This document shows, piece after piece, positions 1,802 to 60,854 of a stretch of 64,000 nt of DNA. The stretch's first letter is position 1. Every line of letters begins with the position of its first letter. The notes beneath the pieces are model-generated. The model worked only from the letters and a program-made list of their open reading frames with translations. It did not search any database and had not been told where the DNA came from. Source of the stretch: an uncultured Candidatus Saccharibacteria bacterium (GTDB lineage Bacteria > Patescibacteriota > Minisyncoccia > Phycocordibacterales > CAYSCM01); contig CAYSCM010000001.1 in NCBI GenBank assembly GCA_964429815.1, forward strand, positions 160,001 through 224,000, written 5' to 3'. A program made the translations under genes and the position numbers.

Positions 1802-3334
1802 CTATGGAAACGGGTGGGGTGTCACATTCACCTCAAAGTCACTGCTATCTTTATATCCGAAAGGATATAAACGAGAAGAGCCGAGAGGTGCAAACGTTTC
1901 ATTCATATAAAGAGAAATAAGCCCGGGAACACAGATTTTTACTGAATGATAGTTGAGTTTTCGTAGAATGGGATGACTAGCTTCAAATAAAAATACTTCG
2001 TAAGCAGGACCTCTCGCCTTAAATAGTTCCAGTAACTCATCGAGTCTTTCTCGTGGGGATCGGATAGTTTTATCTTTCCTCAAAAAAGGTACGGGGGTGG
2101 CTGCGATAAAAAAAGAAAACCTGTCGAGAAGTTCTGGTTTCGCCCATAAGAGCTGGCGATTGAAAGCACCCCACTCAAGCGTAAAAGGTTCTATTGAATT
2201 CAGGGAAGGAAGTTCGTCACTTGGTTCATTAACGTTTTGCCAAATGCGCACACTGAGCGCCTCAACAAGAGCTCGTAACAACGAATCTTCGTCATCACCC
2301 CCACACCCACCACCAAGACTTACTGCAGCTCCTCTCCCAGTCCTATCTAACACTGCGGCAATATACACCGGAATACCTACAGCAGAGTCTAGCTGCATAA
2401 AATGAACTTCTAGACCTGCCTCCCTACATTCTTTAAGATGGTGGGTAATACGCGGATCGGTGAATGACTCGACACTTATTTTTTTTGGGATGCGTTTGGT
2501 AAGCCAGTACAGTAAAAATGCATCACGTTGAATAAGTTCATAAAGTCCCGATAGAATCGCCTCATCTCTAGTGAACATTCCCCCCGCCCCATTAGTGTTA
2601 GATTCACGTAACACGGGCTCACCCTCTGTTGCGCGGTAGTTAAAAAAAACCAGTTGTGCGGGAATGAGAGCGTCACGACGTTTTGTCAACGAATAACCTT
2701 CAACAAAGTTAAAAATGCTGTCCCTGGTAAAAAACCGTCTGGGAAAACGTTTTTTCTGCCATGTCGAAGCATGTGAAGCAAGGAAAGGGTCGAGGAAGTG
2801 TCTTTTCCCGCGCTCCAAATCGCTAATTGAGGCTCGGCACAGATCTTTTTCGCGATAAATTGATAGCGGGTAACGCTCGAGTAGTTCCCCGAATACCTTC
2901 GAGAGTGCTTCTTGTATATCACCAGATATCCCCCTACTGTATCCTCCGCTTGCCACTTCTGGGGAACCATCGGTTGGAGAATTTGCTGCCCAGAGCCTTA
3001 CCGCGAAAAGACTTGGCTCCCCATGTAAAACCTTATCGAAGGTAATGTTCGGTTGCTTTAAAACTCCATTTGCATATAAGTACTGGCTCAATATTTGCCA
3101 TTCTGGAGGAATAGGATATTGCTGGGTCGGAAGAATTTCTGGATAAGAAGGCAACGGGTGGCCATGTTTCAGTCGAAGTATATCGGCGAAAGAAACGGGT
3201 AAATGATATCGAAAATGTGGGCCGACTGGGTAGCGCAAAGGATAATTTACCTGGTTATAAAAAGGTAGATAGGTGCCTAGACCTCGTTGGTTTTCGGAAT
3301 TTTTTTCTAAAACCGTAATCGGTTGGTTAAGCAT
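1802..3334 (-). CDS. YcaO-domain protein (ATP-dependent amide-backbone activating enzyme family)
   Basis: ORF listed 1802..3460. The internal Met at 3334 gives an ATG overlapping the upstream TAA, typical translational coupling, so I take 3334 as the probable start. YcaO N-terminal motif GYSRGISGDIQEALSKVFGELLERY. Core motif SNTNGAGGMFTRDEAILSGLYELIQRDAF (compare E. coli YcaO SNGMSAGNTRNEARVQGLSEVFERY). Pro-rich C-terminus ...VTPHPFP as in azoline-forming YcaOs. Confidence 0.75.
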   Translation of the reverse strand: MLNQPITVLEKNSENQRGLGTYLPFYNQVNYPLRYPVGPHFRYHLPVSFADILRLKHGHPLPSYPEILPTQQYPIPPEWQILSQYLYANGVLKQPNITFDKVLHGEPSLFAVRLWAANSPTDGSPEVASGGYSRGISGDIQEALSKVFGELLERYPLSIYREKDLCRASISDLERGKRHFLDPFLASHASTWQKKRFPRRFFTRDSIFNFVEGYSLTKRRDALIPAQLVFFNYRATEGEPVLRESNTNGAGGMFTRDEAILSGLYELIQRDAFLLYWLTKRIPKKISVESFTDPRITHHLKECREAGLEVHFMQLDSAVGIPVYIAAVLDRTGRGAAVSLGGGCGGDDEDSLLRALVEALSVRIWQNVNEPSDELPSLNSIEPFTLEWGAFNRQLLWAKPELLDRFSFFIAATPVPFLRKDKTIRSPRERLDELLELFKARGPAYEVFLFEASHPILRKLNYHSVKICVPGLISLYMNETFAPLGSSRLYPFGYKDSSDFEVNVTPHPFP

Positions 3335-5216
3335 GTTTTTTATATAAAAGCCTTGATATACCGAGTAAAATATGTGCGCTGGAATCAACCCACGCATCGG
3401 GGTTATTGTTATCGTGACGAAATCCTCCAACAAGCTTGTCTTGTCGTTCTTTAGGAACAAAAAAAAGATTGGTTTCGTCGTACTGCATTTTAGAAAGCCA
3501 ATCTAGCGCTCTAGCAAGGACTACTTTGTTGTTTTTCGAGTCAACAGCCAAAACCTCAAAAATTTTTCCTGTACCTCGGGTAAAAGAAAAAACAGAATTT
3601 TTTGTTCGAGGAAATGACCCGTCACTATTTTGTGAATTTTTCATCCAGAAAGTCACACGGTCCACAACCTCCATATTGTGGGGGAAGAAAAGATTTACAA
3701 GTTCAGCGTATAAAGCAAACTCAATACCTTCTCGTTTCTCTATATCTTGGTCAAATTTTTCAACCAAACGTCTCTCAAGAACCGGGGCTCCGCTTTGCTC
3801 CCACTGTGCAACAGGCATAATGAGTCGAGCCAGACCAAGCGCATGTGACAGCGTTATCACATCGTCACGCCAATAAAGTGGCAATAGGGACGCTAAAAAT
3901 TTTTCTGCAAGCTTTCTTTCACCGAGAGCCCAGGCTGCTTTGCCCAGATAAGCTCTAGTTAGATCAGCGCCGGCAATTTCTCTGGGGCGCCGATCCAATT
4001 GCTTTTCTATAGCCGCCATGCCACGATGTGCCGCCTTAACATAGTCCCGTCCAATCGATATTTTGGAAAATTCCGCAAGCGCCCACACAGCATATGCCTG
4101 CCTGGGCCAATCAGCAGTAGGAGAAGTGTCCTTTCGAGCCGAGACAATGACACGGAAATTTCCATCTGCGTCTTGATTAAAAGAAAGCCAGGTGGCAATT
4201 TTTTGTGCGACAGCAATTTCATTCTCCGCATTTTCTTGTACAATAGGCCCCTTTAGCGAATATATAGTTCCTATTCTTTGCGGAAATTCTATAAGATCTT
4301 CCACTTCGAAACTTACTGTCTCGGCTTTATCGATTGAACCCTGTATCGAAGCTTTTTCCCTGGCAAGGTTTAATAACAATTCGGGCATTCCGGAAAAATG
4401 TCGAATATTGAATATTTCCGGCAAAAACCAACCGCGATGGCTGCCGAGAGCCAAAAGATACCCCTTATCAGTGTATATGTCGCTGTTCTGTTTTTCTTTT
4501 TGTGTGAGCGGAATACGTAAATGACCCATAAGCGTAATTTCGATTACGACAGTTTCAAGCTCACTAGGGCCTATAGGTTTAAAACGTGGATCTCGAGCAG
4601 CCATCATAGCCGCCGTGGCAACTGCTTGTCCGATTTCCTTATTTTCTATGATGATGGAGCCGCGAAATTGTCCCTCAATCCAGAATGCTACATCAACATC
4701 ATTACGTAAGTGTAGACGCGTAGATCTTTGTGGAAGAATAAATTTTTCATCTCCATTATTGACATAATGTGTAAGTGCATGCCGGGCAATCCTGAATAAC
4801 TCCTTCTTTTCTTCATTTAATAAACCCCACCGTAATGGCTGCGGTGAAACGTTTCGCTTTTTCGACTCACGTATCTGGATAGTTGGCGAGGAATATAGGA
4901 TGGCCCACATTTCATCTACTTCCACGGATATCGGTGAATATTCGATAATAAATGTTATAGAGTCTTTGGAAGGAGGTGGGGGGATTTCGATAGGATGGTC
5001 ACCATACGTGAGCGGAAATGAAAAAGAAAAATATCTAACCTTCCCCTTCCCTCTTAAACAAAGGATGTCCTCTTTATTCGCCAATGTGCTAATAAAAAGA
5101 AAAGTTTCTTCAATTTGACGAGAAAAATGTTTGTTAAAAAATCTCTTATGGGGGGTGAAAAAAAAACCCTTTCGCATGATGAAGGCATCATAACACTCAG
5201 AAAATATCTGTAACAA
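3327..5216 (-). CDS. AMMECR1-domain protein fused to a C-terminal alpha/alpha-toroid (prenyltransferase/terpene-cyclase-like or LanC-like) repeat domain
   Basis: AMMECR1 signature LNEEKKELFRIARHAL ... RGSIII ... AVATAAMMAARDPRF ... YLLALGSHRGWFLPEI. C-terminal Q-x-DG-x-F type repeats (NQDADGNFRV, NSQNSDGSFPR, VGGFRHDNNNPDAWVDSSAHILLGI). The true start may be an internal Met near 4910. Confidence 0.55.
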   Translation of the reverse strand: MLQIFSECYDAFIMRKGFFFTPHKRFFNKHFSRQIEETFLFISTLANKEDILCLRGKGKVRYFSFSFPLTYGDHPIEIPPPPSKDSITFIIEYSPISVEVDEMWAILYSSPTIQIRESKKRNVSPQPLRWGLLNEEKKELFRIARHALTHYVNNGDEKFILPQRSTRLHLRNDVDVAFWIEGQFRGSIIIENKEIGQAVATAAMMAARDPRFKPIGPSELETVVIEITLMGHLRIPLTQKEKQNSDIYTDKGYLLALGSHRGWFLPEIFNIRHFSGMPELLLNLAREKASIQGSIDKAETVSFEVEDLIEFPQRIGTIYSLKGPIVQENAENEIAVAQKIATWLSFNQDADGNFRVIVSARKDTSPTADWPRQAYAVWALAEFSKISIGRDYVKAAHRGMAAIEKQLDRRPREIAGADLTRAYLGKAAWALGERKLAEKFLASLLPLYWRDDVITLSHALGLARLIMPVAQWEQSGAPVLERRLVEKFDQDIEKREGIEFALYAELVNLFFPHNMEVVDRVTFWMKNSQNSDGSFPRTKNSVFSFTRGTGKIFEVLAVDSKNNKVVLARALDWLSKMQYDETNLFFVPKERQDKLVGGFRHDNNNPDAWVDSSAHILLGISRLLYKKHA

Positions 5217-5549: not shown

Positions 5550-6152
5550 ATGCTCCGCAAAGCCGTCCCTATGGCGACGGCCGCTGGGCTCGTCGCACTT
5601 CTATCAGCCGCTGAACCCCTAGAGACCACCTACAAAACGCTGACCTACCGGACGTACCGCGTGGATCTTTCCGGTCGTGCAATGGCTCTTACCGAAGAGC
5701 GCTACGAGTTTGTGAGCCGCGACCTAAACGGAAGAACTCGACTGCGTCTCACGGTCCGAAAGCTCCCCGACGGAGAGATCCTCGAGAAAGACATCCCTGT
5801 AGTCACGACCCGCTTCGGCAACCTAGAGCGTCGCGGGGAGCTTCGGTGGAGCCCCTACCGCCCTCGCATCATCGAGCGTGAGTACGACACCCGCATCGAC
5901 TACACGACTCGAATGGGAGCGCAAAAGATGGCTACCGGTCGATCATTCATGCTTTCGTATGGACTGCGCGAAGCCACCTACGCCGGGAAAATCTACAAGG
6001 CCTTCAAGGTGCGCTCCGACATTTTCGAAAATAACGGATCAATGACGCGATACAAGTGCGTGTACGTGTTTGAACTTCGAACTATCGCTTTTTGTCGAGA
6101 ACAGGGCACCGAAGCTGACATTGAAACCCGACTCGAAAAGGTTGAGAACTAA
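5550..6152 (+). CDS. Secreted hypothetical protein
   Basis: The 5' part of listed ORF 5307..6152 overlaps the tRNA and is spurious. The internal start MLRKAVPMATAAGLVALLSAAEP is a signal peptide. A hairpin-rich terminator region follows at about 6154-6226. Confidence 0.5.
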   Translation: MLRKAVPMATAAGLVALLSAAEPLETTYKTLTYRTYRVDLSGRAMALTEERYEFVSRDLNGRTRLRLTVRKLPDGEILEKDIPVVTTRFGNLERRGELRWSPYRPRIIEREYDTRIDYTTRMGAQKMATGRSFMLSYGLREATYAGKIYKAFKVRSDIFENNGSMTRYKCVYVFELRTIAFCREQGTEADIETRLEKVEN

Positions 6153-8462: not shown

Positions 8463-9413
8463 ATGGCAGAAGGAGGTGGTGGCAAAGGCGCGGGCAGCGA
8501 TGCACTCTTTGTCATCATGGTGCTGGTCGTCCTCTTTATCGTTTGGGCGGCAAGCGGTGGCATCGAGCGGGCCCGCCAAGACCCCGGCTACTTCTTGAAA
8601 CCTCCAGCGCCGCTCGGCTCCGGCGAGGTCTACGGCAGCTCTCTGACGCAAGGAGTGCACCAAACCGGAGACGCCATTTCTCAGAGCCTCTCGCAAGCGC
8701 AAAGCGAGCTCGGCACAAACATTCCCGTTGGAACACTCTCTCCGTATCACGGTCTCGTCCATCTCACGACCATAAGCGGTGCAGGTAGCTTCGAGCCAGC
8801 GCAGGAATACGTCGAGATCGACTACAACGGGGAGGGTTCACAATCTATACCCGTTACGGGATGGCGCATTGTAAGCGCGGTCAGTAATTTCTCCGCCGTA
8901 CTCCCGCTTGGCACCCGTATCCCCAACTCCGGCGCGCTCTCCTACACGGAGCCCATATACCTGCGCCCGGGAGAACAGGCCTATATCGTGACCGGCCGCT
9001 CGCCCATCGGCTACTCGTTCCTCACCAACAAGTGCGTGCCATACTTCCAGCAGTTCCAGAACTTTTATCCGAGCCTCTTTAATTCCTGCCCCTACCCGAC
9101 AGACGAGCTCCTGCGCTCACAAAACCAAGCCGTCCACACCGACAACGCCTGCTACGACTTTGTCTCGACGCTTTCCTCTTGCCGGATCTATCTCACACCG
9201 CTTGACCCATCGCTCTCCGGAAGCTGCCAGAATTTCGTCGCTAACACGCTCACTTATACCGGCTGCGTGGAGAATCATCGCGCCGATGCCGACTTCTACG
9301 GGCACGACTGGCGAATCTACCTCAATCGTGACCAGTCGCTCTGGCGGGATCGTCGCGAAGTCATTAAACTCCTCGACCAGAACGGCCGCACGGTCGACGT
9401 GTTGACCTACTAA
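8463..9413 (+). CDS. Membrane-anchored protein with a lamin-tail-domain-like (LTD) fold
   Basis: N-terminal TM FVIMVLVVLFIVWAA. EYVEIDYNGEGSQSIPVTGWRIVSA...GEQAYIVTG resembles LTD. Several Cys in the C-terminal part. Confidence 0.45.
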   Translation: MAEGGGGKGAGSDALFVIMVLVVLFIVWAASGGIERARQDPGYFLKPPAPLGSGEVYGSSLTQGVHQTGDAISQSLSQAQSELGTNIPVGTLSPYHGLVHLTTISGAGSFEPAQEYVEIDYNGEGSQSIPVTGWRIVSAVSNFSAVLPLGTRIPNSGALSYTEPIYLRPGEQAYIVTGRSPIGYSFLTNKCVPYFQQFQNFYPSLFNSCPYPTDELLRSQNQAVHTDNACYDFVSTLSSCRIYLTPLDPSLSGSCQNFVANTLTYTGCVENHRADADFYGHDWRIYLNRDQSLWRDRREVIKLLDQNGRTVDVLTY

Positions 9414-9448: not shown

Positions 9449-9486
9449 ATACTCAAATTCTAAGCTATAGCTTAGAATTTGAGTAT
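9449..9486. repeat. 38-bp perfect palindrome ATACTCAAATTCTAAGCTATAGCTTAGAATTTGAGTAT (copy A)
   Basis: Exact reverse-complement symmetry read from the sequence. It lies between convergent genes (8463..9413 + and 9508..9987 -). A near-identical copy is at 40736..40773. Confidence 0.65.
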
Positions 9487-9507: not shown

Positions 9508-9987
9508 CTACACTCCCTGCACGTAAGCAAGAGCGATGCCCGCAGCGACGGAGACGTTGAGCGATTCTTTAGAACCTCGCATAGGGATTTCAGCGAGGAC
9601 GTCGGCACCCTCGAGAAGGTTCTGACTGATTCCCTCGGTCTCGCTGCCGAGTATGAGGAGAATATGTTTGCCCTTTGGCAGAGCCGACACGGAGATCGAG
9701 CCGCTCCCCTGCTCGAGCGCGGCTATGAAAAAACCTTTCGCACGGTACGTGTCGATGACGGGGAGCCCCGCCTCGGTGTGCTCCCACTTCACCGTTTGTT
9801 CGGCGCCGAGGGAAACTTTGGCGAAATCCGCTCGAGCTCTTCCGAAGCGGTCGAGCGGAGTTGGTGTAGTGCCAACGCAGTAGATTCTTAAAACAGCAAA
9901 AGCATCTGCGGTGCGGAAAATTGAGCCGACGTTGTGGACACTTCGGATATTGTCGAGTATCAGCACGGTCTTTCGCCGTTGACTCAT
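9508..9987 (-). CDS. SpoU/TrmH-family RNA 2'-O-methyltransferase
   Basis: Internal start MSQRRKTVLILDNIRSVHNVGSIFRTADAF (SpoU motif 1) ... LILGSETEGIS ... SLNVSVAAGIALA (motifs 2 and 3). The listed 230-aa ORF has a spurious N-terminal extension. Confidence 0.75.
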   Translation of the reverse strand: MSQRRKTVLILDNIRSVHNVGSIFRTADAFAVLRIYCVGTTPTPLDRFGRARADFAKVSLGAEQTVKWEHTEAGLPVIDTYRAKGFFIAALEQGSGSISVSALPKGKHILLILGSETEGISQNLLEGADVLAEIPMRGSKESLNVSVAAGIALAYVQGV

Positions 9988-10035
9988 GGGGGTTGGGCTA
10001 ATAGTATCGAAAAAAGAGATCCTGAGGAGTTGGTA

Positions 10036-10218
10036 ATGGCGAAGGGTGGGCGACGTAGCGACTGGCGCAATGGAAAACGAAAAGACCACGAGGAGTGTGA
10101 GAGGTTCAATCTCAAGCGTAAATCCTTTGAGCGTGGCTGCATCCGGTGCGGGCAAGGTCCCGTGGACCATACCCGCCGATGTGTACGATGTAAAACCCAA
10201 GAATCGAGGCCCGAATAG
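10036..10218 (+). CDS. Small basic zinc-ribbon protein (CxxC-x10-CxxC), hypothetical
   Basis: GAGGAG Shine-Dalgarno 5 nt before the ATG at 10036. MAKGGRRSDWRNGKRKDHEECERFNLKRKSFERGCIRCGQGPVDHTRRCVRCKTQESRPE. Followed by hairpin GAGGCCCGAATAGGGCCTC plus T-tract at 10206-10235. Confidence 0.4.
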   Translation: MAKGGRRSDWRNGKRKDHEECERFNLKRKSFERGCIRCGQGPVDHTRRCVRCKTQESRPE

Positions 10219-16699: not shown

Positions 16700-16730
16700 A
16701 AAACAAAAGGGCGCGCCGGAGGCGCGCCCT
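16700..16730 (-). terminator. Rho-independent terminator downstream of the lipoprotein gene
   Basis: GGGCGCGCCGGAGGCGCGCCC hairpin with a T-tract on the minus strand. Confidence 0.5.
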
Positions 16731-16748
16731 TGATAAAAGAAGAGGGAG

Positions 16749-21630: not shown

Positions 21631-21860
21631 CGTTATCCACACCAAAATGCCCCTCGTCTTGCCTGTAGGAATCGGGCTGTGCTAACAATGAGGTGCATAG
21701 GCTTAGCAGTTAATTTCACGGGCGCATCGTATGCGTGACGATAGGGAAAAAGAAGAGGGCGAAGAGACGGAGGAAGGGCTGGGCGAGGAAGGTGCCGACG
21801 ACGGCGAGGATGAAGATGAGGAAACTCTCCTCGATGAAGGCGATGAGATATAAAAACGAA

Positions 21861-21889
21861 ATCACCCGCGTACGCGGGTGATTTTATTT
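21861..21889. terminator. Bidirectional Rho-independent terminator (tyrS / upstream plus-strand unit)
   Basis: ATCACCCGCGTACGCGGGTGAT hairpin with T-tracts on both sides. Confidence 0.6.
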
Positions 21890-25564: not shown

Positions 25565-26665
25565 TTAACGATTCATCGGCATGACGAGATAAAGAAACGA
25601 TGCATCGCCCACACCTCGTATGACGAGCGGCTTGCCTGGTCCACCAAAGGTAAGGGTGAGGCTATCAGTGGAGATTGATTGGAGACAGTCGGAAAGGTAG
25701 CGATGGTTGAAGTGTATATCGAGTGATTCTCCGGATAAGGTTGCGGGTATCTGCTCCTCTATTTCACCGATATCCGCATTCCGGGAGCTTAGGGTAAATG
25801 CTTTTTTGTTTGGTTTGAGCGAGAAGGATACCTGATTGAACTTATCGGAAAATACGACAGCGCGCTTAAGAATGGCCATGAAATCGGCTTTAAGGAGCAC
25901 AGCCTCAGTGACTCCCTCTTTGGGAATTATTTGTCGATAGTCCGGGAAGGTGCCGTCGATGAGCCGTGAGGTTATGAACACCCGCTTAAAAGAGAGCGAG
26001 AGTTGGTTTTTTGAGAAGGAGATATTCAATTCAGCATCGGCTTCCTCGAGAATTTTCGCTATCTCAATGGCATTTCGTATGGGAAGTATGAGGGGATCGA
26101 AATCGACGCTCTTCTTTTCGGGAACTATTTTCTCCGCAAGCCTAAATGAATCCGTTGCTGCAAAGATGAGGCTTCCATTATGGTGATAGATATAAATACT
26201 GCAAAGCTCGGGTTTGATTGATGATGTTGAAGCGCTGTAGGCAACGGCTCGTACACCACGAGCGAGTATGTCGGGTTTTATGGAGAGCGACTTTCCGCCG
26301 GAAACGTAGGGGAGGTGAGGAAAATCGGCCGCTGCTTGTCCCTTGATTGTTGTTGTACTGCCTTTGGTTTCCACCTTAAGGTTCCCTTCAACTCCTACTA
26401 ATCGCACCGGGGTTCCTGATGGTGTGGTATTTACCACTTGTGAAAGGATGTGTCCTGGTACCGCAACTACTCCTTCGGTCGAAACTTTAGCCGGTACTTC
26501 AACCTCTATCCCAAGCTCGAGGTTGGTAGAGCGAATGAGAAGGTTGTTCTTTCCTGCAACGATACAAAGGCAGGAGAGTACCGGAAGGGTAACGTTGCGC
26601 CCCGTTGCTCGTTCTGCGAGACCAATGGCCCTCTGGAGTTCTTCGCTTCGTACCTCAACCTTCAT
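25565..26665 (-). CDS. dnaN: DNA polymerase III beta sliding clamp
   Basis: MKVEVRSEELQRAIGLAERA..., three-domain length (366 aa), immediately downstream of dnaA. Confidence 0.9.
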   Translation of the reverse strand: MKVEVRSEELQRAIGLAERATGRNVTLPVLSCLCIVAGKNNLLIRSTNLELGIEVEVPAKVSTEGVVAVPGHILSQVVNTTPSGTPVRLVGVEGNLKVETKGSTTTIKGQAAADFPHLPYVSGGKSLSIKPDILARGVRAVAYSASTSSIKPELCSIYIYHHNGSLIFAATDSFRLAEKIVPEKKSVDFDPLILPIRNAIEIAKILEEADAELNISFSKNQLSLSFKRVFITSRLIDGTFPDYRQIIPKEGVTEAVLLKADFMAILKRAVVFSDKFNQVSFSLKPNKKAFTLSSRNADIGEIEEQIPATLSGESLDIHFNHRYLSDCLQSISTDSLTLTFGGPGKPLVIRGVGDASFLYLVMPMNR

Positions 26666-29646: not shown

Positions 29647-30173
29647 ATGAAGAAAACCAGCAAAAACAACAGCATGCCAAAGAAACGCGCCGCCCTATCG
29701 ACCGGGCGCTCATTCGTAAACTTTTAACCGACGTACTGGAACGCCTCCAGATAACCGTTGAGGCGCTCGAGGAGATCGACCACCCGGCCCACCCCATTTT
29801 TTTGGTGAAGACACCCGATTCGGCGGTTCTCATAGGCAACCGGGGAGAGAGCCTCCAAGCACTCAACTATCTCTTGCGAAAAATGGTCGAGCAAGAGGGT
29901 GACGGAGAGGGCATGGAGCAGTTTCTCGTCGACGTCAATCACTACCAAAGCAAAAAAATAGACGAGCTGCGGCAAAAAGCGCTCATGCTCGCGGAGCGCG
30001 CTCGTCTCTTCAAGCACGACGTTGAAATGAGCCCCATGAGCGCCTACGAACGCATGATCGTGCACGCAACATTCGCCGATCATCCCGACGTCGGCACAGA
30101 ATCGCAAGGCGAAGGAAAGTTCCGCCGCGTGGTCATCAAATATAAGGGTTCAGGAAGCGGCGGAGGTACCTAA
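29643..30173 (+). CDS. jag: Jag/KhpB RNA-binding protein (KH plus R3H)
   Basis: R3H motif MSPMSAYERMIVHATFADHPDV. Canonical position after yidC. Confidence 0.75.
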   Translation: MNEENQQKQQHAKETRRPIDRALIRKLLTDVLERLQITVEALEEIDHPAHPIFLVKTPDSAVLIGNRGESLQALNYLLRKMVEQEGDGEGMEQFLVDVNHYQSKKIDELRQKALMLAERARLFKHDVEMSPMSAYERMIVHATFADHPDVGTESQGEGKFRRVVIKYKGSGSGGGT

Positions 30174-31438
30174 CGGGCGCCCGTCGATGTGGCACTGTCG
30201 CTGAGCCTCACGCTCCAGAGTGAGAGATCTTTTTTGTTTTGAAAGAGAAGCTCGTCTTCGTTAGGTGAGAGCGAGAGATACTGCACGTCGAAGAGACGCG
30301 TGCCTTCACTGCTGAAGCGATAGAAGAGGGTTGAAGCACCTGTTTGTGCGTCGATATGCCAAATGTTATCGGAGAAACTAGCTTGCCCCTGGTACCACAG
30401 GTCGGGATAGGTACCATTCGTATTTCCCGTAACTGCAAACGGCACCGCACAGAGTATCTCCGTTGGTTTTTTGACGCTCCAGAGGCACTTGTCGGGGATG
30501 GTGGCGACGGCTGCATCGATGACTTTCCCTGTTCTAACGTTGAGGATATGCATAAGGATGGTAGAACCGATGGTCTCGCTCCACAGAATACGCTTGCCGT
30601 CCGCGCTCGGGAGAGCTGTGAGCCCCGAAATGTCGCCAAGGAGGCGCCCCACGGTGCCCGAGGAGGGATTCACGCTGTAAAGATAGCCCGGAGTGTTTCC
30701 GGAGGGTTTGGAGAGAAGAAGCGGGGTTCCTCCGAGCCAGTAGGGAAGCCACTCGGATATAGGCGAGGAAAAGAGCTTGGTGATTTTCCCGGTAGAAATG
30801 TTGTCGACGATGACCGAAGAACCCTGATTCTCCTTGCGGATGTAGAGAAGCTGCTTTCCTTTGCTATCAGGTGCTACGGCGAGAATATTGTCTTCGAGAT
30901 AGGTGCCGCCGAGCGACCCTCCGCCCCCGTTTGCGTTTATACGGCCGAGGAACGTCTGTATGCGCTCGTCGCTCTCCGAGAGGAGACGCAAAAGCAAGAT
31001 TATCGGGCTGTCGAGCCAGAGCGCCTGGTAGATCTTAGGTATAGTTGTATTGGTAACGCGCTTCGTCTCGCTATTTTCGAAGTTAGCTTCGTAGACGTTG
31101 CCATCTTCGCGTTCAATGTAGCGAATGAACTCGTTGCCATTGGCGAGGAACGAGGCATACCCCGACACCGGCTTTCCGGATACCAGGTGCAGACGCGGTG
31201 ATGTGCTGGCCTGCCCGGAGAGTTCTGCTCCGGTGTCACCTCCTTGTGGAAAGGGCTCTCCCGAACCAGTGCCACCTTGCCCCGTTGGACTTTCAGAAAT
31301 TTGTCCGAATATAGGCTGTTGAGCTTGCGATGAGCTCCTAGAACTCGCGGTTTTCCCTAAGAAATAATAGCTGCCAACCCCAAGTAGCACGAGGCCGAAG
31401 AAAAGTCCGAGAGTGATGTAGAGGGTCTTTCGTCTCAT
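30170..31438 (-). CDS. Membrane-anchored hypothetical protein with beta-propeller-like repeats; first gene of the T4SS-like cluster region
   Basis: N-terminal TM LYITLGLFFGLVLLGVGSYYF. Ser/Gly-rich linker. Repeated TolB/WD-like strands. Confidence 0.45.
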   Translation of the reverse strand: MRRKTLYITLGLFFGLVLLGVGSYYFLGKTASSRSSSQAQQPIFGQISESPTGQGGTGSGEPFPQGGDTGAELSGQASTSPRLHLVSGKPVSGYASFLANGNEFIRYIEREDGNVYEANFENSETKRVTNTTIPKIYQALWLDSPIILLLRLLSESDERIQTFLGRINANGGGGSLGGTYLEDNILAVAPDSKGKQLLYIRKENQGSSVIVDNISTGKITKLFSSPISEWLPYWLGGTPLLLSKPSGNTPGYLYSVNPSSGTVGRLLGDISGLTALPSADGKRILWSETIGSTILMHILNVRTGKVIDAAVATIPDKCLWSVKKPTEILCAVPFAVTGNTNGTYPDLWYQGQASFSDNIWHIDAQTGASTLFYRFSSEGTRLFDVQYLSLSPNEDELLFQNKKDLSLWSVRLSDSATSTGAR

Positions 31439-31439
31439 A

Positions 31440-32393
31440 TCAAAATCCTATAGCGCTGCACCTCGGTGCTTCTCCGAATCCCGGACAATATTGCTGGCAA
31501 TCAGCGAGAGAGGAAAAGGCTACTTTCCCAGTCTCGATTCCCTTCCCCCAGGTGCAGAGTGTTTCCTGCGGGGCATTAAAAAGACTCTGTGGCTCTTGTG
31601 GCGGAGGTGGCAGGTTCGTCGTTTGTGATTGTAAAACGTCAGCCGACACCGCCGTGCATCTGCCCGAACAGGTTCGCTGGCACTCATCCATTGATGCAAC
31701 ATAGTAGCGTCGTCCTTGATATGAACCGTTATCTTCACGAAGTTCGCACGCCGCCTGAGAACTTATGCTAGTTGGAATCCCGTTTATAATCGGAGTCTTG
31801 TTTGGCTGGGTCGTTATTGTCGTCGGGCTCCCCGTCCCGGGCGTTGTGGATGGCCCGCCGAGGAGCGAATTATTTTTTACAATCTGCGGATTGATGGTGA
31901 CGAGGAGTACGTAGGAGAGAAGGATGATAAGAAGGCCGTATATCGCGGATTCAATGTAATCACGCCCACCCTCTTTCCCAAACGGCGTACTGCTCAGCAT
32001 GTACTTGAAACCGCCAAAGGTAATCATAAGAACGGCGAGAAGCGCTGCGATGCCAAGGCCAAAATCAAAAATAGTATTGAGGACACTACTGAGACTCCCG
32101 TTGTTTTTTGTGTAAAGCCCTCCAATATTTTCAAGGGGGACGAAACCTTGAGAGCCGGTTACTTGTGTTCCTAAGGGAGTAGTTTGTAAGGGGGAAGCGT
32201 CACCACATCCACCGGTTCCTTGTACATCAACGCAGGGTGTGCCCGATTGCGCTGGTTGAAGTGCAGAAGAACAATTTTCCGTATAGCCTCGAGAACAGGA
32301 GTCTCCAGATTCTGCCTTAGAAAAGGCAAACGGCAGCATCAAAAGACAGAGAATGGAGATTATTATTTGTGACTTTCTCATATCATTTACCAA
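31440..32393 (-). CDS. Cys-rich secreted protein with a central two-helix hydrophobic hairpin; possible VirB2/TrbC-like pilin
   Basis: Signal peptide. Cys-rich N-domain. Hydrophobic helices FDFGLGIAALLAVLMITFGG and AIYGLLIILLSYVLLVTINP. Cys-rich C-domain. Confidence 0.35.
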   Translation of the reverse strand: MVNDMRKSQIIISILCLLMLPFAFSKAESGDSCSRGYTENCSSALQPAQSGTPCVDVQGTGGCGDASPLQTTPLGTQVTGSQGFVPLENIGGLYTKNNGSLSSVLNTIFDFGLGIAALLAVLMITFGGFKYMLSSTPFGKEGGRDYIESAIYGLLIILLSYVLLVTINPQIVKNNSLLGGPSTTPGTGSPTTITTQPNKTPIINGIPTSISSQAACELREDNGSYQGRRYYVASMDECQRTCSGRCTAVSADVLQSQTTNLPPPPQEPQSLFNAPQETLCTWGKGIETGKVAFSSLADCQQYCPGFGEAPRCSAIGF

Positions 32394-33402
32394 AGTTTAT
32401 TTGAAGGGCTATCGATGTGGCCTGAAAAATTTGCGAAACATTTTGTAGCGAGAGAGCAAGATTTGCTGTGCCCGATGATGGGGCCGTCTGGCGCAGCACT
32501 ACATCGGCCGGATTTTTACTCGAGGGAGTCACGCTCTTGTCATTGAGCGTCCAGGCGTAGGTGAGCGCTCCTCCGCCGCGGGAATCCGTCGAGAAAAAGT
32601 ACGGGAAGGCGGAGACCGTCGCCTCGCTTTTAGTGAGATTGACACTTTCAGGAAGTGCCCGGTCGAAACGAAATCCTAGAAGTGGGTCGTTTTCATAGAG
32701 GATGACGAATGGCTCGTCTCCGTTGAACGAGAGGGAACGAGTTGCTTTGATGGAACCATCCGAACTCGCTACGTCTACCGACACATTGATCCCGCGATAG
32801 ACGCGGGCGCCGGGGATGGTAACGGACTGAGCGCCGCGCCCCGAAGAATCCCCCAGCACCTGGCCATTAAGGTGCCACGTGTAGAAAAGGGCCTCAGGCC
32901 TGATGCGCGCGCCGTTCTCGTCTACGAAAAACGGCATCGCAAAGAGGACCATCGTGGCGTCATAGGGAGCGAGAGCTTTACCGCGGTAAAAGGGCGGGGT
33001 GTAGACATTCGCTTGCCACAGCAGATCAAGGCCTGCCGGGCGAACGATGGCTGTTTTGGTAAGGGTCGAGCCATTGGGGAGTGTTGCGTTAACGCGAAGC
33101 ACATTGATGCTTCCAATACCGCCAACCGTGAAGTGGGCCGTGACGACACCAACCCCTGAGTCAATGATCTTCCCGTTAAGGCTCCACACCAAGGTGGCGC
33201 GGGCAAGGTTTTCTGCGTAACTGGCGACCTGGGCCGATACGGCTTGACCCGCTCCGGGTACCTCAGGCGAGAGGGAGAGCGAAAAATCTCCTGGCACGGT
33301 GGGCAAATTTAGCTGTGCAAAGAGCGTTGTAGGGAGCGAAAGGGCCGCGACGAGGAGTGTCGTCGCGCAGAGGCCGCGCATGATTCGGGGGGAAATAGTC
33401 AT
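32383..33402 (-). CDS. Secreted protein with repeated Ig-like beta-sandwich modules
   Basis: Signal peptide LCATTLLVAALSLPTTLFA. Repeated WxLNG...G motifs. Confidence 0.45.
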   Translation of the reverse strand: MTISPRIMRGLCATTLLVAALSLPTTLFAQLNLPTVPGDFSLSLSPEVPGAGQAVSAQVASYAENLARATLVWSLNGKIIDSGVGVVTAHFTVGGIGSINVLRVNATLPNGSTLTKTAIVRPAGLDLLWQANVYTPPFYRGKALAPYDATMVLFAMPFFVDENGARIRPEALFYTWHLNGQVLGDSSGRGAQSVTIPGARVYRGINVSVDVASSDGSIKATRSLSFNGDEPFVILYENDPLLGFRFDRALPESVNLTKSEATVSAFPYFFSTDSRGGGALTYAWTLNDKSVTPSSKNPADVVLRQTAPSSGTANLALSLQNVSQIFQATSIALQINFGK

Positions 33403-34016
33403 CAGGCTGCCTTCACTTTGGCTTGAGATTTATTATATTCCCTATCCTCCTGGTGAACGAGGCGGATTTCCGACCACACGCACATCGTCCATATAGGTAT
33501 TGCATTTAACCCAGGCGCTAATTTAACCGCGATGAGAATCAAATCTCGGATCGGGCGTTTTAGTGTCAAAAAGTTATGACCAGAAGTAGCAAACCATCCA
33601 ATGAAAATAAAGAAAATCACGATCGACAAAACCGTGTTGATGATGAGTCCAATGATGAGAAAGGTGAGAACAAGTTGGATAAGATCGAAAAACATCGCCA
33701 CTCCCATCATGGCCGCATACTGAAGTCCTCCGATGCGGTGACGTTTTTTTGCGGGTACGGAAACGCGTTGGGCCGTCGCCACTTGAGCGGGCTCCCGTGG
33801 TGAAACCCGCGTATATCCCGATGGCTGCCGTTGCCAAAACGCACGCTCTTGCGGGTCGAGTTCCTTACTCCCCATGCTCACCTTCGGGTTCCCGCCTATG
33901 CGAATGCCTCGCTTTACTCCTTCGGCTCGTAAGGCTTCGTATTCCTGTCGAGTCATGGAGGGATCCGCTCCAGCCGGAGGGGTCCACTTTTTTGATTGCG
34001 GGTCACGCGGAGGCAT
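33402..34016 (-). CDS. Membrane protein, hypothetical (T4SS-like cluster)
   Basis: Basic N-terminus followed by three hydrophobic helices. Confidence 0.45.
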   Translation of the reverse strand: MPPRDPQSKKWTPPAGADPSMTRQEYEALRAEGVKRGIRIGGNPKVSMGSKELDPQERAFWQRQPSGYTRVSPREPAQVATAQRVSVPAKKRHRIGGLQYAAMMGVAMFFDLIQLVLTFLIIGLIINTVLSIVIFFIFIGWFATSGHNFLTLKRPIRDLILIAVKLAPGLNAIPIWTMCVWSEIRLVHQEDREYNKSQAKVKAA

Positions 34017-34018
34017 GA

Positions 34019-35851
34019 CTATTTATTCGCCTCGGCCTCGAGCTCCTGGCGGGCCTTTTTAATAGCGAGAATTTGGCTCGGATCGGAGGTGATGATTTGA
34101 TCTTCGGTATAAGAGGCGATGATTTTGATGGCGACGTGTTTGAGGCCGGCAAAGAATATCCCCTCTCCCACGTCCGATTCCAGGAGCAGGTACTTTTCCT
34201 CGTCGGTGAGGTTAAACGTTTTCTGCACGTTGTCGATGGAGGTTGGCGATTGCTTCAGCAGCAGCTGAATGGAGGAGTTGGTTATCATAGGGAGCCCGTA
34301 GGGAGAGTTCAAGAAATCAGAAACGTCTTGCGTGATGGTGGCAAGACCCAGGAAGTATTTGCGCCCGCGTTTGGCGACCGAAAAGAGGAAACTCGCCGTA
34401 TCCTCGCTCTGCATCATCCAGTGCGCTTCATCGACGATAAAGAGGCGTTTCTTGAGCTCCTTGCGCACTGCGGTCCAGATGAAGTGCGTGACGATGTACA
34501 TGGCGACGGGCTTGAGCTCATCCTCCATGTCGCGCACGGAGAATACGACAAAATTTTTGTTGATATCGACATTGGTCGGGCGATTGATGAAACCTGCCCA
34601 CGTACCCTTGGTGTACTTGGAGAGGCGCTGCACGAGCGACTCGGAGCCTTCCATTCCGGCGAGCACGAGCTCGAAGTCGGAGAGGAGCGGCGGCTCGATG
34701 CTGGTGAAGTCGCTCTCCCCCGTTATGTCCTTGAGCGCATAGGTTTCCGTGATAGCCCGGTCGATGATGGAGTCTTCCTCCGGCGTTAGGCCGCCGAGCA
34801 TGATGCGGAACAGGCCCACGAGATTCACGATGTTGCTTCGAAGCACGTCGCCGGGAGCTTCGTCTTCCCGCGGGGTCGGCAGGTCGAAGGGGTTGATGTG
34901 GTGCTCGGAGGTGAGGGATATGTTGAAGTAGCGCCCACCGACGGCGTCCGCCATGTACTCGTACTCACGCTCAGGGTCGATGACAATGACCTCGGTGCCG
35001 AACATAAGGGAGCGCAAAATTTCGAGCTTTACCGCGTAGGATTTGCCGGCGCCGGATTTTGCGAACGTCACCGAGTTGTAGTTTTCGAGGCTAAAGCGAT
35101 CAAAGAGGATGAGGGAGCTGTTGTGGCGGTTGATGCCGTAGAGAATTCCCTTGTCGGAAGTGAGATCGAAGGAGACAAAGGGAAAGAGCGAGGAGAGCGG
35201 CGAGGAGTTGAGCTTCGTGTGCACGGAGAGCTCATCGGAGGCTATGGGAAGTACGGAGCGGAACCCCTGCTCCTGCTGAAAGAGCGCGGGCTTCACGTAG
35301 ATGAGGCGGCTCTCGAGCATGGTCTTTATCTCGCTCTCCACCTTGTCGAGCTCTTCCTGCGAGTTGCCATAGATAGAAATGTAAAGCCCGACATCGAAGA
35401 GTTTCTCTTGCGCCTGCTGGAGCTGGTCGCGGAGCGATTCAAGGTCACGATAGGCGGTGTCGAGCATTGGATCGCGCACGAGCCCGCGCTCCTCTCGGGT
35501 CGTGATCTGACTTTGCACCTCCGCGACCTTTTTTTGGAATTTCCGAAGCACTGTAGCGGTGTCCGCCGGATGCACGAATATGGATACGTCGAAGACCCGA
35601 TCGAGATTTATGATGGGAGCAAACCAGGAATCCGCGAGGTAGCGTGGGTAGGAAATAACAAATAGCGTGCGCACCAGCTTGTCGCCGAGATTCATCTCCC
35701 GCGGGGTGATCTTGAGCGCTGAAGGGGCGATGATGTCGTGGAACTCAAGCGCTCCCGCTTCATAGATTTCCTGCGGCAAAATGGGAGTGACCGGGACTTC
35801 CCTCCTCTTTTTCCCGCCCAAGCCTCCTGTGAGAAAATCAAGTAGAGCCAT
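34019..35851 (-). CDS. VirB4/TrbE/CagE-family type IV secretion ATPase (C-terminal ATPase portion)
   Basis: Walker A FAKSGAGKSYAVKLEIL. Walker B LFIVDEAHWMM. About 600 aa of VirB4-like sequence. Confidence 0.8.
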   Translation of the reverse strand: MALLDFLTGGLGGKKRREVPVTPILPQEIYEAGALEFHDIIAPSALKITPREMNLGDKLVRTLFVISYPRYLADSWFAPIINLDRVFDVSIFVHPADTATVLRKFQKKVAEVQSQITTREERGLVRDPMLDTAYRDLESLRDQLQQAQEKLFDVGLYISIYGNSQEELDKVESEIKTMLESRLIYVKPALFQQEQGFRSVLPIASDELSVHTKLNSSPLSSLFPFVSFDLTSDKGILYGINRHNSSLILFDRFSLENYNSVTFAKSGAGKSYAVKLEILRSLMFGTEVIVIDPEREYEYMADAVGGRYFNISLTSEHHINPFDLPTPREDEAPGDVLRSNIVNLVGLFRIMLGGLTPEEDSIIDRAITETYALKDITGESDFTSIEPPLLSDFELVLAGMEGSESLVQRLSKYTKGTWAGFINRPTNVDINKNFVVFSVRDMEDELKPVAMYIVTHFIWTAVRKELKKRLFIVDEAHWMMQSEDTASFLFSVAKRGRKYFLGLATITQDVSDFLNSPYGLPMITNSSIQLLLKQSPTSIDNVQKTFNLTDEEKYLLLESDVGEGIFFAGLKHVAIKIIASYTEDQIITSDPSQILAIKKARQELEAEANK

Positions 35852-35853
35852 AG

Positions 35854-36489
35854 CTATAGGTTCGCTGCGATCGGCTTTTCGAGCTCACCGGGGTTGAAGA
35901 GTTTGTAGTAAAGCTCGATGGCTTCCTCGGTGCCTAAGGTCGCGACCCTAACTCCGGTGCGCACGAGCCCTTGCTCGACGACCGCGACGCGTTGCTCAAG
36001 TTGGGTGCGGCTCTCTTCGAACGTCGCGGCGGCCTCCTCCTTCGTTTTTTTGCCGAAGCTCGGGAGCGTTGGGAGCCCGCTTTTTCCCACGGAGAGCACC
36101 GCCGGCGAGTACGGCACAACGATAAAGAAATTTTTCGTCATAATGTTGGCCTGCTCGACGAAGCTTTTTATGAAATCAATGTACTCGCGTGTCTGGATTT
36201 TCATAAGCTCGGTGGTCTGCTCTTTGTACTTTCCCTCAAGGAGCGCCACGTAGGGGCGGATATCGAGCTGGCGTGATTCGATGAATATCTGGATGGAAAA
36301 GTCGAGCGAGTTGAGGAAGTTTTGGAACTGCGCGAGGATGGCGGTCTGTTCGTCGGCGGATTTAAGCGCAAAATTGAGCGAGGAGGCGATGAGAATGGAG
36401 CGCAACCCTCCGTCCTTGAGGACCACGATGCCATCACGCACCTCCTTGATGGGCACGAACTCCTGGCTTGCTTTTCCGGCGACGGCCAT
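35854..36489 (-). CDS. VirB4 N-terminal domain encoded as a separate ORF
   Basis: GIVVLKDGGLRSILIASSLNFALKSADEQTAILAQFQNFLNSLDFSIQIFIESRQL matches the conserved VirB4 N-terminus. Its stop lies 2 nt before the ATG of the ATPase ORF, in a different frame. Confidence 0.6.
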   Translation of the reverse strand: MAVAGKASQEFVPIKEVRDGIVVLKDGGLRSILIASSLNFALKSADEQTAILAQFQNFLNSLDFSIQIFIESRQLDIRPYVALLEGKYKEQTTELMKIQTREYIDFIKSFVEQANIMTKNFFIVVPYSPAVLSVGKSGLPTLPSFGKKTKEEAAATFEESRTQLEQRVAVVEQGLVRTGVRVATLGTEEAIELYYKLFNPGELEKPIAANL

Positions 36490-36495
36490 GGTGAT

Positions 36496-36909
36496 TTAGC
36501 GATAGGCGCCCGTTTTCTCCTTTATATCGAGGCTCCAGGCGAGATCCTTAAGTTTGCTCTCCGAGAGCTTAGGCACGACGATAGTCGCCTCCAGTTTCGT
36601 CTCCGGAGTGGCTTTTGCGGCGGCTTTGGGAACAACCTTTTTCCAGAGGTAGAGCCGGCCGCGCATCATGTAGTAGAAGGCCGCCTCGAGAGTCTCGATG
36701 AACGGACGATTATTTATCTTATAGAACGCAAGTGCAGCGGAAAGCGCGGCGACCGGAATACCAAGGAGTATCACGAGAAAAAGTGGCAGAAAAACGTAGA
36801 GAATGGCGATCACTCCTCCACCGCCGGCGAGGTAGACAAACTGGCGGAACGTGAGGGGCCCCACTATCTTGTCTTCCACCTCAATGAACTGCGGCACCTG
36901 GAACTGCAT
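36496..36909 (-). CDS. PrgI/VirB3-like small T4SS membrane protein
   Basis: MQFQVPQFIEVEDKIVGPLTFRQFVYLAGGGGVIAILYVF... matches the PrgI-family start (..P.fi..edki.GpLT.rQ..yl) plus two TM helices. Directly upstream of VirB4. Confidence 0.55.
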   Translation of the reverse strand: MQFQVPQFIEVEDKIVGPLTFRQFVYLAGGGGVIAILYVFLPLFLVILLGIPVAALSAALAFYKINNRPFIETLEAAFYYMMRGRLYLWKKVVPKAAAKATPETKLEATIVVPKLSESKLKDLAWSLDIKEKTGAYR

Positions 36910-36982
36910 AGAAGTAGTATACCCCGCGCAAAGCCGCATCGCGGCTTTGCGCTGTAGATTCGGCGCGTACTACTATGAGTGC

Positions 36983-40679: not shown

Positions 40680-40735
40680 CCGGGAAGCCTACCATTGTCC
40701 CGCTTAGAGTCAATGCATACCGTGGCGTGCATTGA

Positions 40736-40773
40736 ATACTCAAATTATAAGCTATAGCTTATAATTTGAGTAT
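40736..40773. repeat. 38-bp perfect palindrome ATACTCAAATTATAAGCTATAGCTTATAATTTGAGTAT (copy B)
   Basis: Differs from copy A (9449..9486) by one substitution in each arm, and the two changes are complementary, so the palindrome stays perfect. Confidence 0.65.
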
Positions 40774-40829: not shown

Positions 40830-41732
40830 TTAGGAGAGGGGTTCGCGGTAGGGGTCGACTTTTGGCTTTTCAGGACCTGCGGAGGCGGAGGGGCCTATCG
40901 GTGGCACGATTTTTTTCTCCTGCATCGGGGAGCGCACCTGGCTTTGGAGCTTCGCCGCGGTGAAGTCTTGTCCAAAAGTGCGAAGTGGGGGAAGTGAGCT
41001 TTCCTGCACCGGCGCTCCCACCACCGGCCCTCTATTAATAGAGGGGGTCGGGGCAGGTTGCGGTGCGACCAGAGATGTGGCTTTTGTCGGAGCTGAGGAG
41101 ACCGAGGCCGGACGGACGGGAATTTCTGGCGTCTTTTGAAGAGCAGCTATCGCGTCGGCGAGAGCTTCTCTGCCGCCGGGCGCCGTCGAGGGGCGCGCAG
41201 GAATTGAACTCGAAAGTGGAGGTTTTGTCTGGGGAGGGGGCGGGGCTTGCCTTGGTACTTGCTCCCCAGGTGGCCTTTGTGGTTGCGGGGTTTGCGTCGC
41301 GGGTTGCGGTCGTGGTGTTTGTTGGGGTGCGGCTCCTCCTTCCCCACCGCGGGCATGTGCGAAGGGGGCGGATTGAAGGGAGGGCGTTATATCTCCTTTG
41401 AGAGGAGTTTGTTTTGAGGGTTCCTCGGTAATTTTTTTAAGAGAGTCGCGAATGGGTTTAAAAATCTGTTCATTAACATCCAGAACAACCGAGCCGACTT
41501 TTTCTACAGGAAAACCACGTTTTCGAAGTTCATCTGGTAGTACCTCAGCCTTAATTTCTCCAAGAATGACTAGCGTGATTACATCACTAAGAAGACCAAC
41601 CTTATCAATGAGTAGCGCCTGTTTCCTACCAATGGCTTGAATAGCTTCTGTTACTTTCTCAGAAAAAAGAACGTCTTGGAGTTCTGAAGGAAGTTGGAAT
41701 ATCCGTCTTATTTTTTGCTTAGTATCGATCAT
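40830..41732 (-). CDS. Pro/Ala-rich low-complexity protein, hypothetical
   Basis: 300 aa with long PQ/PA-rich stretches. Structured N-terminal 100 aa. Confidence 0.4.
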   Translation of the reverse strand: MIDTKQKIRRIFQLPSELQDVLFSEKVTEAIQAIGRKQALLIDKVGLLSDVITLVILGEIKAEVLPDELRKRGFPVEKVGSVVLDVNEQIFKPIRDSLKKITEEPSKQTPLKGDITPSLQSAPFAHARGGEGGAAPQQTPRPQPATQTPQPQRPPGEQVPRQAPPPPQTKPPLSSSIPARPSTAPGGREALADAIAALQKTPEIPVRPASVSSAPTKATSLVAPQPAPTPSINRGPVVGAPVQESSLPPLRTFGQDFTAAKLQSQVRSPMQEKKIVPPIGPSASAGPEKPKVDPYREPLS

Positions 41733-60846: not shown

Positions 60847-60854
60847 ACCAAAAA

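Follow-up and report, generated by a model that had tools for sequence, protein, structure and literature searches.

A small family of perfect, mirror-symmetric palindromes in intergenic spacers of a Patescibacteria lineage, tentatively read as gene-end hairpins of the REP kind

How does a long palindrome keep its two arms identical while it is reused at unrelated places in a reduced genome, and what might it do there? The question is raised by a 38-bp palindrome found twice in a 64,000-nt stretch of an uncultured Candidatus Saccharibacteria bacterium (assembly GCA_964429815.1, contig CAYSCM010000001.1, positions 160,001 to 224,000; this whole stretch is called the window, and coordinates without a locus handle count from its first letter). 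The original prediction, made from the letters of the window, had described two perfect palindromes separated by one mirrored substitution, and our palindrome search bore out both the coordinates and the sequences. Copy A (ATACTCAAATTCTAAGCTATAGCTTAGAATTTGAGTAT, 9449-9486, 26% G+C) and copy B (ATACTCAAATTATAAGCTATAGCTTATAATTTGAGTAT, 40736-40773, 21% G+C), neither of them assigned to a strand, are perfect 19+19 palindromes without a spacer, begin with ATAC, end with GTAT, and differ solely at the mirrored positions 12 and 27 (C/G in A, A/T in B). Their G+C content of 21-26% compares with a window average of roughly 53%. By our own arithmetic a random 64-kb sequence is expected to hold 64000 x 4^-19 = 2e-7 perfect 38-bp palindromes, and none of 100 dinucleotide-preserving shuffles contained the palindrome pattern. 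RNA of either strand is predicted to form a 17-bp stem closed by a 4-nt loop (copy A, -22.1 kcal/mol, z = -8.9; copy B, -20.0 kcal/mol, z = -8.7), and the single-stranded DNA hairpins reach -15.2 (A) and -14.1 (B) kcal/mol. The palindrome pair is real, non-random, and reproducible. Elsewhere in the 64-kb window there is neither another copy nor a half-site when up to 3 mismatches are allowed.

Beyond the window, a scan of a metagenome collection gave nine hits, of which eight were non-palindromic chance matches and one, on contig JACXTT010000264.1 of the metagenome-assembled genome (MAG) GCA_016853205.1, was real. This copy C (ATACTCAAATTATAAGCTATAGCTTACGATTTGAGTAT; positions 2901-2938 of locus L011, which is the same site as 9596-9633 of locus L017) departs from copy B at two neighbouring positions, both in the same arm, and was recovered unchanged from three independent assemblies; the genes that converge on it are a bPH_2 gene and one of 71 aa. 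It comes from the run series SRR12313479/SRR12313480, the Logan contigs of the window come from SRR12313482, and the source of copy C may be the same population as the window or a close relative. The three near-identical copies, two from the 64-kb window and one from about 21 kb of the related MAG, share 36-38 of 38 positions with one another, and their flanks have nothing in common even directly beside the 38-bp unit, a comparison that led us to reject an extended element.

Searching the fetched loci for long no-spacer palindromes added three diverged members. One of these, in L025 (AAACACCGAACCTACGCTA / TAGCGTAGGTTCGGTGTGT, 5904-5941), lies 59 nt upstream of the ATG of a 978-aa protein that is 50% identical to the product of the gene following copy B in the window, a 998-aa secreted LCAT-like/MBG (PxKF-type) gene (37683-40679, minus strand). 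Another, L017b (CACAAACCGTAAGCCA / TGGCCTACGGTTTGTG, 17127-17158 of L017), shares its MAG contig with copy C at a distance of 7.5 kb and has a 136-aa gene and rpoD ending towards it from either side. The third, L027 (...AATTCTAGCAT / ATGCTAGAATTTGCTAT, positions 1-28), precedes the closest LCAT/MBG homologue (55% identity), whose ATG lies 75 nt beyond the right edge of the palindrome. Anchored at the dyad, the arm of the L025 member matches the window arm at 12/19 positions (empirical probability of at least 11/19 = 0.002) and that of L017b at 11/16 (empirical probability of at least 11/16 = 0.0002). The Logan contig of L027 starts inside the palindrome, and its left arm was reconstructed from the observed right arm; 14 of 17 bases of the reconstructed arm match the window arm, with two 1-nt gaps, and the contig break suggests perfect symmetry and hence mirrored indels in this member. 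The original prediction had held that a lack of further copies genome-wide, together with a lack of conservation in related genomes, would speak for a chance local duplication; with copy C and three diverged homologues at hand, sequence comparison places the two window copies as homologous members of a small repeat family.

In the five full-length members, 8 of the 19 arm pairs are changed on both sides and 93.7% of the cells pair, a figure to be read with the selection of the diverged members in mind, as they were chosen for being palindromes and their homology is informative while their pairing is not. None of 500 shuffles reached the observed covariation, and slid controls pair at 21-39%. 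Pair 18/21, for example, carries a mirrored change from T-A to C-G in L017b, and the central four bases change from TATA to ATAT in L027, still self-complementary, so the mirrored changes reach the four bases that a hairpin of RNA or single-stranded DNA would leave unpaired. In the alignment of five members 17 of 38 columns are invariant, with a conserved centre GC-N4-GC and the motif TAnnnT at positions 25-30 in every member (TATAAT, TAGAAT, TACGAT, TAGGTT, TACGGT), and the predicted hairpin energies of the family lie between -16 and -28 kcal/mol (z scores between -4.9 and -9.1). Copy A, L025, and L027 all have C at position 12, and the A/T at positions 12/27 of copy B looks derived. The one-arm CG of copy C at positions 11-12 is the state found in L017b, 7.5 kb away, which could, speculatively, reflect conversion between family members.

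The symmetry has thus been kept through substitutions and, as the reconstructed L027 arm would have it, probably through indels. The compensatory change between A and B had been taken as a signature of selection and not of neutral repeat decay. Symmetry is indeed kept across the divergence of the family; a single mirrored substitution between two copies is no proof of selection, as template switching suffices and copy C has changed in one arm only. Template switching at quasipalindromes turns imperfect inverted repeats perfect without selection (PMC7202029), and persistent mirror symmetry does not require selection, because template switching would mirror or revert single-arm changes (PMC7202029). 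Nor is symmetry through the axis alone proof that duplex DNA is being recognised, because the window holds another no-spacer palindrome of a familiar kind at 21859-21884 (AAATCACCCGCGTACGCGGGTGATTT), a perfect G+C-rich 26-bp unit with A-/T-run flanks between RuvC and TyrRS, which looks like a bidirectional terminator.

The placement of the members is a further line of evidence. For five of them the genes on both sides are known: these genes converge on the member in three cases and run in tandem in two, and all five members follow at least one stop codon; convergent junctions make up about 17-20% of the window junctions (a rough count from the map of open reading frames, ORFs), and three of five exceeds expectation only weakly (binomial p of about 0.05). 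Copy A has genes converging on it from both sides and is 35 nt past the stop of a 316-aa gene (8463-9413, plus strand, weak lamin-tail-domain match) and 21 nt past the stop of a SpoU-type RNA methylase ORF (9508-10200, minus strand), the true start of which is probably further downstream, the orthologue in a relative having 158 aa. Copy B is central in a 150-nt spacer of tandem minus-strand genes, with 56 nt on each side: it follows the stop of a 300-aa ORF (40830-41732, minus strand, no Pfam match) and precedes the ATG of the LCAT/MBG gene (40679). The placement of both copies at gene 3' ends, as originally described, is accurate for A and incomplete for B, which is also an upstream element.

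The sequence between copy B and the LCAT/MBG start contains a putative core promoter (40686-40713, minus strand), with a -35 TTGACT (40713-40708), a 16-nt spacer, a -10 TAGGCT (40691-40686), and 6 nt to the ATG. Read in this way the promoter would be of the leaderless type, and copy B would occupy roughly -57 to -94. Directly next to copy B lies another small hairpin, TCAATGCA-N10-TGCATTGA (40710-40735, minus strand), whose proximal arm overlaps the putative -35. In this genome TAnnnT occurs 6-10 nt before the ATG in 11 of 28 window genes (at 6 nt in nine of them) vs. a 6% null, often as ggTAGnnT (e.g., at the starts 6586, 8463, 23104, 28918, 31438, and 40679), a Shine-Dalgarno-like motif precedes only 3 of 28 genes, and the genome seems to be largely leaderless.

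Both tandem members, together with L027, are upstream of LCAT/MBG genes whose neighbours are otherwise non-syntenic. We read seven LCAT/MBG loci, of which three carry a family member (56, 59, and 75 nt upstream of the ATG), three have no hairpin, and one (L031) has an unrelated 41-nt near-perfect hairpin at 135-175 (19-bp arms, 3-nt loop), 111 nt upstream of the ATG and after the canonical terminator of the upstream gene. Long no-spacer palindromes occur about once per 27 kb in these genomes, and by a rough estimate three of them in the LCAT/MBG upstream spacer would arise by chance with p < 0.001. The similarity of the palindromes follows that of the proteins (L027 is closer than L025), and outside the palindrome the LCAT/MBG spacers share no 6-mers. 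In L025 the outer-arm motif recurs at 5968-5985 as CACCGA-N6-TCGGTG, between the palindrome and the ATG and over the likely core promoter, where it is possibly a second operator. A PaaX_M-type regulator was considered as the cognate protein and rejected, being found next to two LCAT loci (L025 and L028) and having no homologue in the window.

At the orthologous sites of a relative (assembly ERZ27300258; 72-83% identity on conserved proteins) the element is absent: at site A (locus L013) two genes overlap by 11 nt and leave no room for it, and at site C (L020) the spacer of 31 bp is below the 38-bp unit length. Gene order across site A is collinear with this relative. A more distant relative (L016, 61% identical) has at site A a different 34-bp perfect palindrome (ATTACTCGCCTATTCGCGCGAATAGGCGAGTAAT, 2736-2769), which we rejected as a family member because its arm identity of 6/17 is at chance level and it shares only the outer bases ACTC...GAGT.

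Wider searches did not enlarge the family. Viral contigs gave no hits to the outer-arm pattern and two chance hits to the family consensus, blastn against plasmids and phages returned only matches with E of about 3, a family covariance model run over 204 kb of locus sequence found no new members, and the literature yielded nothing relevant on the palindrome sequence or on palindromic repeats of Patescibacteria. A genome collection scanned with a one-arm pattern gave a single hit, an exact 21-nt half (TATAGCTTATAATTTGAGTAT) in Lentisphaerota zth2 (CP071032.1; L003 7050-7070), 18 nt before a gene ATG; as a lone half-site with nothing else similar, where about one chance hit is expected, it was rejected as a family member, and it is probably a chance match that resembles a -10 region. 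An assembly artefact was likewise discarded, copy C and the L025 member (also present in L026) each having been recovered in independent assemblies, and so was the boundary of an integrative and conjugative element or genomic island, since the 31 kb between A and B hold dnaA, dnaN, polA, ruvB, and tyrS. Logan contigs (k = 31) end inside palindromes at copies A and B (end of L001, start of L002), at L025/L026 (start of L026), and at the start of L027. A contig break is expected at a perfect palindrome longer than k = 31, and the contig ends at A and B are therefore uninformative on copy number.

We then compared the element with the known classes of short palindromic DNA. The terminator scan found no terminator-like site or T-tract at copy A; at copy B, GGTGTTTTTC follows on the plus strand and is flagged as terminator-like, with no plus-strand gene reading into it. 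An intrinsic terminator has a G+C-rich stem followed directly by a U-tract on the transcribed strand, and neither copy is built in this way, their stems having 21-26% G+C. The earlier statement that the copies lack a flanking T-tract and are not classic intrinsic terminators can be kept for both as noncanonical sites, with the amendment that B has a T-run on the plus strand only; candidates that do combine a GC-rich hairpin with a T-tract exist elsewhere in the window (e.g., 21859-21884 and 16707-16731), as does an A-/T-tract-flanked palindrome at 60851-60882. Rfam 15 detected only two tRNAs at or above the gathering threshold in the window, and at the palindromes it gave only generic hairpin (miRNA-precursor) matches of 14-23 bits vs. 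thresholds of 40-200 bits. As short, hairpin-forming palindromic units whose copies are all intergenic, the members agree with repetitive extragenic palindromic (REP) sequences of the REP/RAYT type. They are unlike miniature inverted-repeat transposable elements (MITEs), as copies A, B, and C lack target-site duplications, the outer three positions are the least conserved, and 38 bp is far below the known MITEs. A position that would suit an operator is held by copy B, L025, and L027, and not by A, C, and L017b in their convergent spacers. Within 64 kb around the origin nothing matches the parS consensus TGTTNCACGTGAAACA better than chance.

On this evidence we rank a REP-like gene-end hairpin first and an operator second. 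Our preferred reading, held tentatively and short of an even chance, is that of a small family of REP-like, copy-spreading hairpin elements at gene ends which are kept symmetric by template switching. The discrete, mirror-symmetric unit of 34-38 bp would reside in spacers after gene ends, and an older member upstream of the LCAT/MBG operon would have given rise to extra copies in this lineage; we place the ancestral member there on account of the C that copy A shares at position 12 with the LCAT-linked L025 and L027. Identity of the arms would be maintained chiefly by intrastrand template switching (quasipalindrome correction), whether or not pairing is also under selection, and copy C would be an intermediate that is not yet mirrored. 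Transcribed from the adjacent gene or genes, the element would give the same stable hairpin in both directions. Rather than working like a classic U-tract terminator, this hairpin could form a barrier at 3' ends or insulate neighbouring transcription units, whether convergent or tandem, from each other. Polynucleotide phosphorylase (PNPase), a 3'-to-5' exonuclease, is the kind of enzyme such hairpins would block. A PNPase is encoded at 57971-60157 of the window. The copying of 38 bp to unrelated spacers and the gene-end placement fit a REP-like hairpin, whereas the long-lived association with the LCAT/MBG upstream region fits a cis-regulatory protein-binding site.

Several observations weigh against this preference. 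The palindromes stand 56-75 nt before the ATG of LCAT/MBG homologues that have only 50-55% protein identity, and such a long-kept link speaks for a locus-specific function in cis which REP-type spread does not predict. The copies have no U-tract, so a role in termination is predicted only. The outer tips are the least conserved part of the unit, three near-identical copies in about 85 kb of the lineage read (~1 per 25-30 kb) are few, and no target-site duplications surround the copies. The tetranucleotide GTAG/CTAC is absent from the 5' end of the unit and the flanks have no common tetranucleotide, and no Y1_Tnp/RAYT/HUH or other transposase was among the Pfam results for the window and the related loci. 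The original prediction had offered a REP-like element, an RNase III hairpin, or an operator; membership of a repeat family has since been added, and our preference for the first of the three is tentative.

Second in our ranking, and possible at a lower level of confidence than the REP-like hairpin, is that a symmetric (dimeric or tetrameric) DNA-binding protein regulates the LCAT/MBG operon from an operator or architectural site, of which the other copies are additional or decoy sites. Its strength lies in the three genomes in which a member precedes the LCAT/MBG gene at similar distances, amid non-syntenic upstream neighbours and spacers without shared 6-mers; the position of copy B relative to the TTGACT-16-TAGGCT promoter, the invariant columns, the recurrence of the outer-arm motif over the likely core promoter of L025, and a symmetry extending through the dyad axis all suit it. 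Nevertheless, A, C, and L017b between convergent genes have no promoter to control, and 4 of 7 LCAT-homologue loci do without a family member. That A, B, and C are nearly identical up to sharp edges, even at positions free to vary between genomes, indicates copying and not independent evolution of sites, and protein contacts by themselves would not be expected to mirror variable positions perfectly. The palindrome centre also lies at varying distances from the putative -10 (about 64, 69, and 80 nt), so that helical phase is not kept, and no candidate regulator was found, the PaaX_M-type proteins near L025 and L028 having no homologue in the window. Somewhat less probable again would be a more far-reaching version, namely an undescribed cis-regulatory or architectural DNA site of Patescibacteria, in which an exact dyad of 34-38 bp is read by a symmetric DNA-binding or recombinase-like protein, is conserved upstream of the operon of a secreted LCAT-like lipase/acyltransferase, and has been copied to other spacers; the enzyme could plausibly take part in host-lipid scavenging. 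If true in its extreme form, the two copies on either side of oriC, which have no orientation, would serve as recombination sites through which the 31-kb origin segment could be inverted.

That the palindrome has no cellular function, being a short, selfish or neutral inverted duplication that has been multiplied a few times and owes its perfection solely to template-switch correction, appears unlikely. The low copy number, the absence at the orthologous sites of the close relative, a location where insertions are least harmful (convergent spacers), the decay already begun in one arm of copy C, and the documented mechanism of symmetric drift (PMC7202029) are what such an element would show. 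What it leaves unexplained is the persistence of homologues beside genes of merely 50-55% identity while the surrounding spacer has become unalignable. Neutral DNA is rarely retained in streamlined genomes that are about 0.5 Mb in size and have overlapping genes, and long palindromes are prone to deletion, both of which also count against it. Less probable still is a compact bidirectional promoter with a -10 hexamer per arm (TAnnnT at positions 25-30 and its mirror) and transcription starts at the palindrome edges. Conceivably, the presence of TAnnnT in all members, its frequency before the local genes compared with Shine-Dalgarno-like motifs, window arms that end in TAnnnT-N6-AT like the local gene starts, and a length of 38 bp equal to that of a core promoter (about -36 to +2) could all be accounted for; but the -35 is poor (TACTCA, AACACC), the promoter scan is empty at both copies, transcription at A, C, and L017b would yield only antisense RNA into the convergent genes, the shorter L027 member no longer has the geometry, and a promoter does not need exact mirror symmetry.

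The least probable of the explanations, and in our view very unlikely, makes the element a site for a chromosome-handling enzyme, either a recombinase core (arm, 8-bp centre GCnnnnGC, arm; loxP/dif-like) or a non-canonical parS-like centromere near the origin. The replication origin lies inside the window (dnaN 25565-26665, dnaA 26903-28288, and rnpA, yidC, and jag at ~28.6-30.2 kb on the other strand; cumulative GC-skew minimum at about 28-30 kb), and copies A and B flank dnaA/oriC at ~18 kb on one side (A, about -18 kb) and ~12 kb on the other (B, about +12 kb). To this may be added the exact no-spacer dyad of 34-38 bp with its conserved GC-N4-GC centre, the lack of a canonical parS in the 64 kb around the origin, and an Xer-type tyrosine recombinase encoded at 62221-63132. 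Set against these are the following: the window has no ParA or ParB gene; collinear gene order across site A gives no sign of a fixed inversion; and the link to the LCAT genes is left unexplained. Copy C, moreover, is probably far from the origin, because its syntenic region is on a 173-kb contig of the relative, and the region syntenic with the window, and with it presumably the origin, is mid-way on a different contig of 402 kb in that assembly. In addition, dif is normally single-copy and located at the terminus. The Xer-type gene (plus strand) combines a Phage_integrase domain with a SAM-like N-terminal domain and is ~34 kb from dnaA.

Set beside systems that are better known, the family most resembles the REP or palindromic-unit (PU) elements and REPINs of Proteobacteria, which are likewise palindromic units of 20-40 nt with sharp edges and no target-site duplication, are scattered over spacers that follow gene ends, whether the genes converge or run in tandem, have a lineage-specific sequence, form hairpins with compensated stem changes, and are absent at the orthologous sites of relatives. 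It differs from them in being perfect without a spacer (REPs are imperfect), in lacking GTAG/CTAC and, in the window and related loci, a visible RAYT, in its low density of about 1 copy per 25-30 kb, in its poorly conserved tips, in being AT-rich in the window, and in having some members that stay linked, from genome to genome, to the sequence upstream of one operon. Bidirectional intrinsic terminators share the symmetric two-strand hairpin between convergent genes, and the example of this genome at 21859-21884 is also a no-spacer palindrome, but the element here is without a G+C-rich stem and A-/T-tracts, and the same 38 bp are reused at unrelated loci. Long palindromic repressor operators are familiar from the 28-bp IR1 of QacR and the symmetric lac operators; the likeness is in an exact or near-exact dyad of a few tens of bp near a promoter (copy B, L025, and L027), and the difference is in most copies being away from promoters, in identity over all 38 positions, and in the variable promoter spacing. 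Core sites of tyrosine recombinases are of the form 13-8-13 (loxP) or 11-6-11 (dif), and parS is a perfect no-spacer palindrome with a few origin-proximal copies. The size and the arm-centre-arm layout of our element recall these sites, and parS shares the missing spacer; the centre here is symmetric and gives no directionality, the copies are multiple and dispersed, the sequence is unrelated to the dif or parS consensus, and no recombination products or ParAB genes were observed. The element belongs to the known kind of dispersed extragenic palindromic repeats, from which its unusual conserved link to one operon sets it apart.

Some features of the surrounding genome may be recorded here. Homologues of the window proteins are labelled Paceibacterota, Kaiserbacteria, or Patescibacteria in their source records, and we read the window as a piece of a Patescibacteria chromosome, probably Paceibacteria- or Kaiserbacteria-like. 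A type IV secretion-like cluster (30170-36939, minus strand) adjoins jag and encodes PrgI-like, TraC-like, and VirB4/TraG P-loop ATPase proteins, a weak T4SS pilin match, and unknown genes; no relaxase was seen in it, and it is followed by a 132-aa membrane protein and then by the LCAT/MBG gene. At 1802-5177 (minus strand) a YcaO-domain protein stands beside an unusually long AMMECR1-domain protein (about 616 aa), a pair that is kept in the relative (L013).

To our knowledge, descriptions of regulatory or repeat elements are few for the bacteria of the Candidate Phyla Radiation, which are mostly uncultured. The family described here is a compact and searchable element with strong mirror-image covariation and a recurring link to one surface-enzyme operon, and it is a clean natural example of palindrome arms that evolve in concert. 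Perfect palindromes longer than the k-mer of an assembler break the contigs of de Bruijn graphs, which means that metagenome assemblies are fragmented at predictable places and that contig ends with half a palindrome are a usable signature of such elements. In essence, the family offers a handle on how reduced genomes end or regulate transcription, and on whether they harbour REP-like mobile hairpins without a known transposase.

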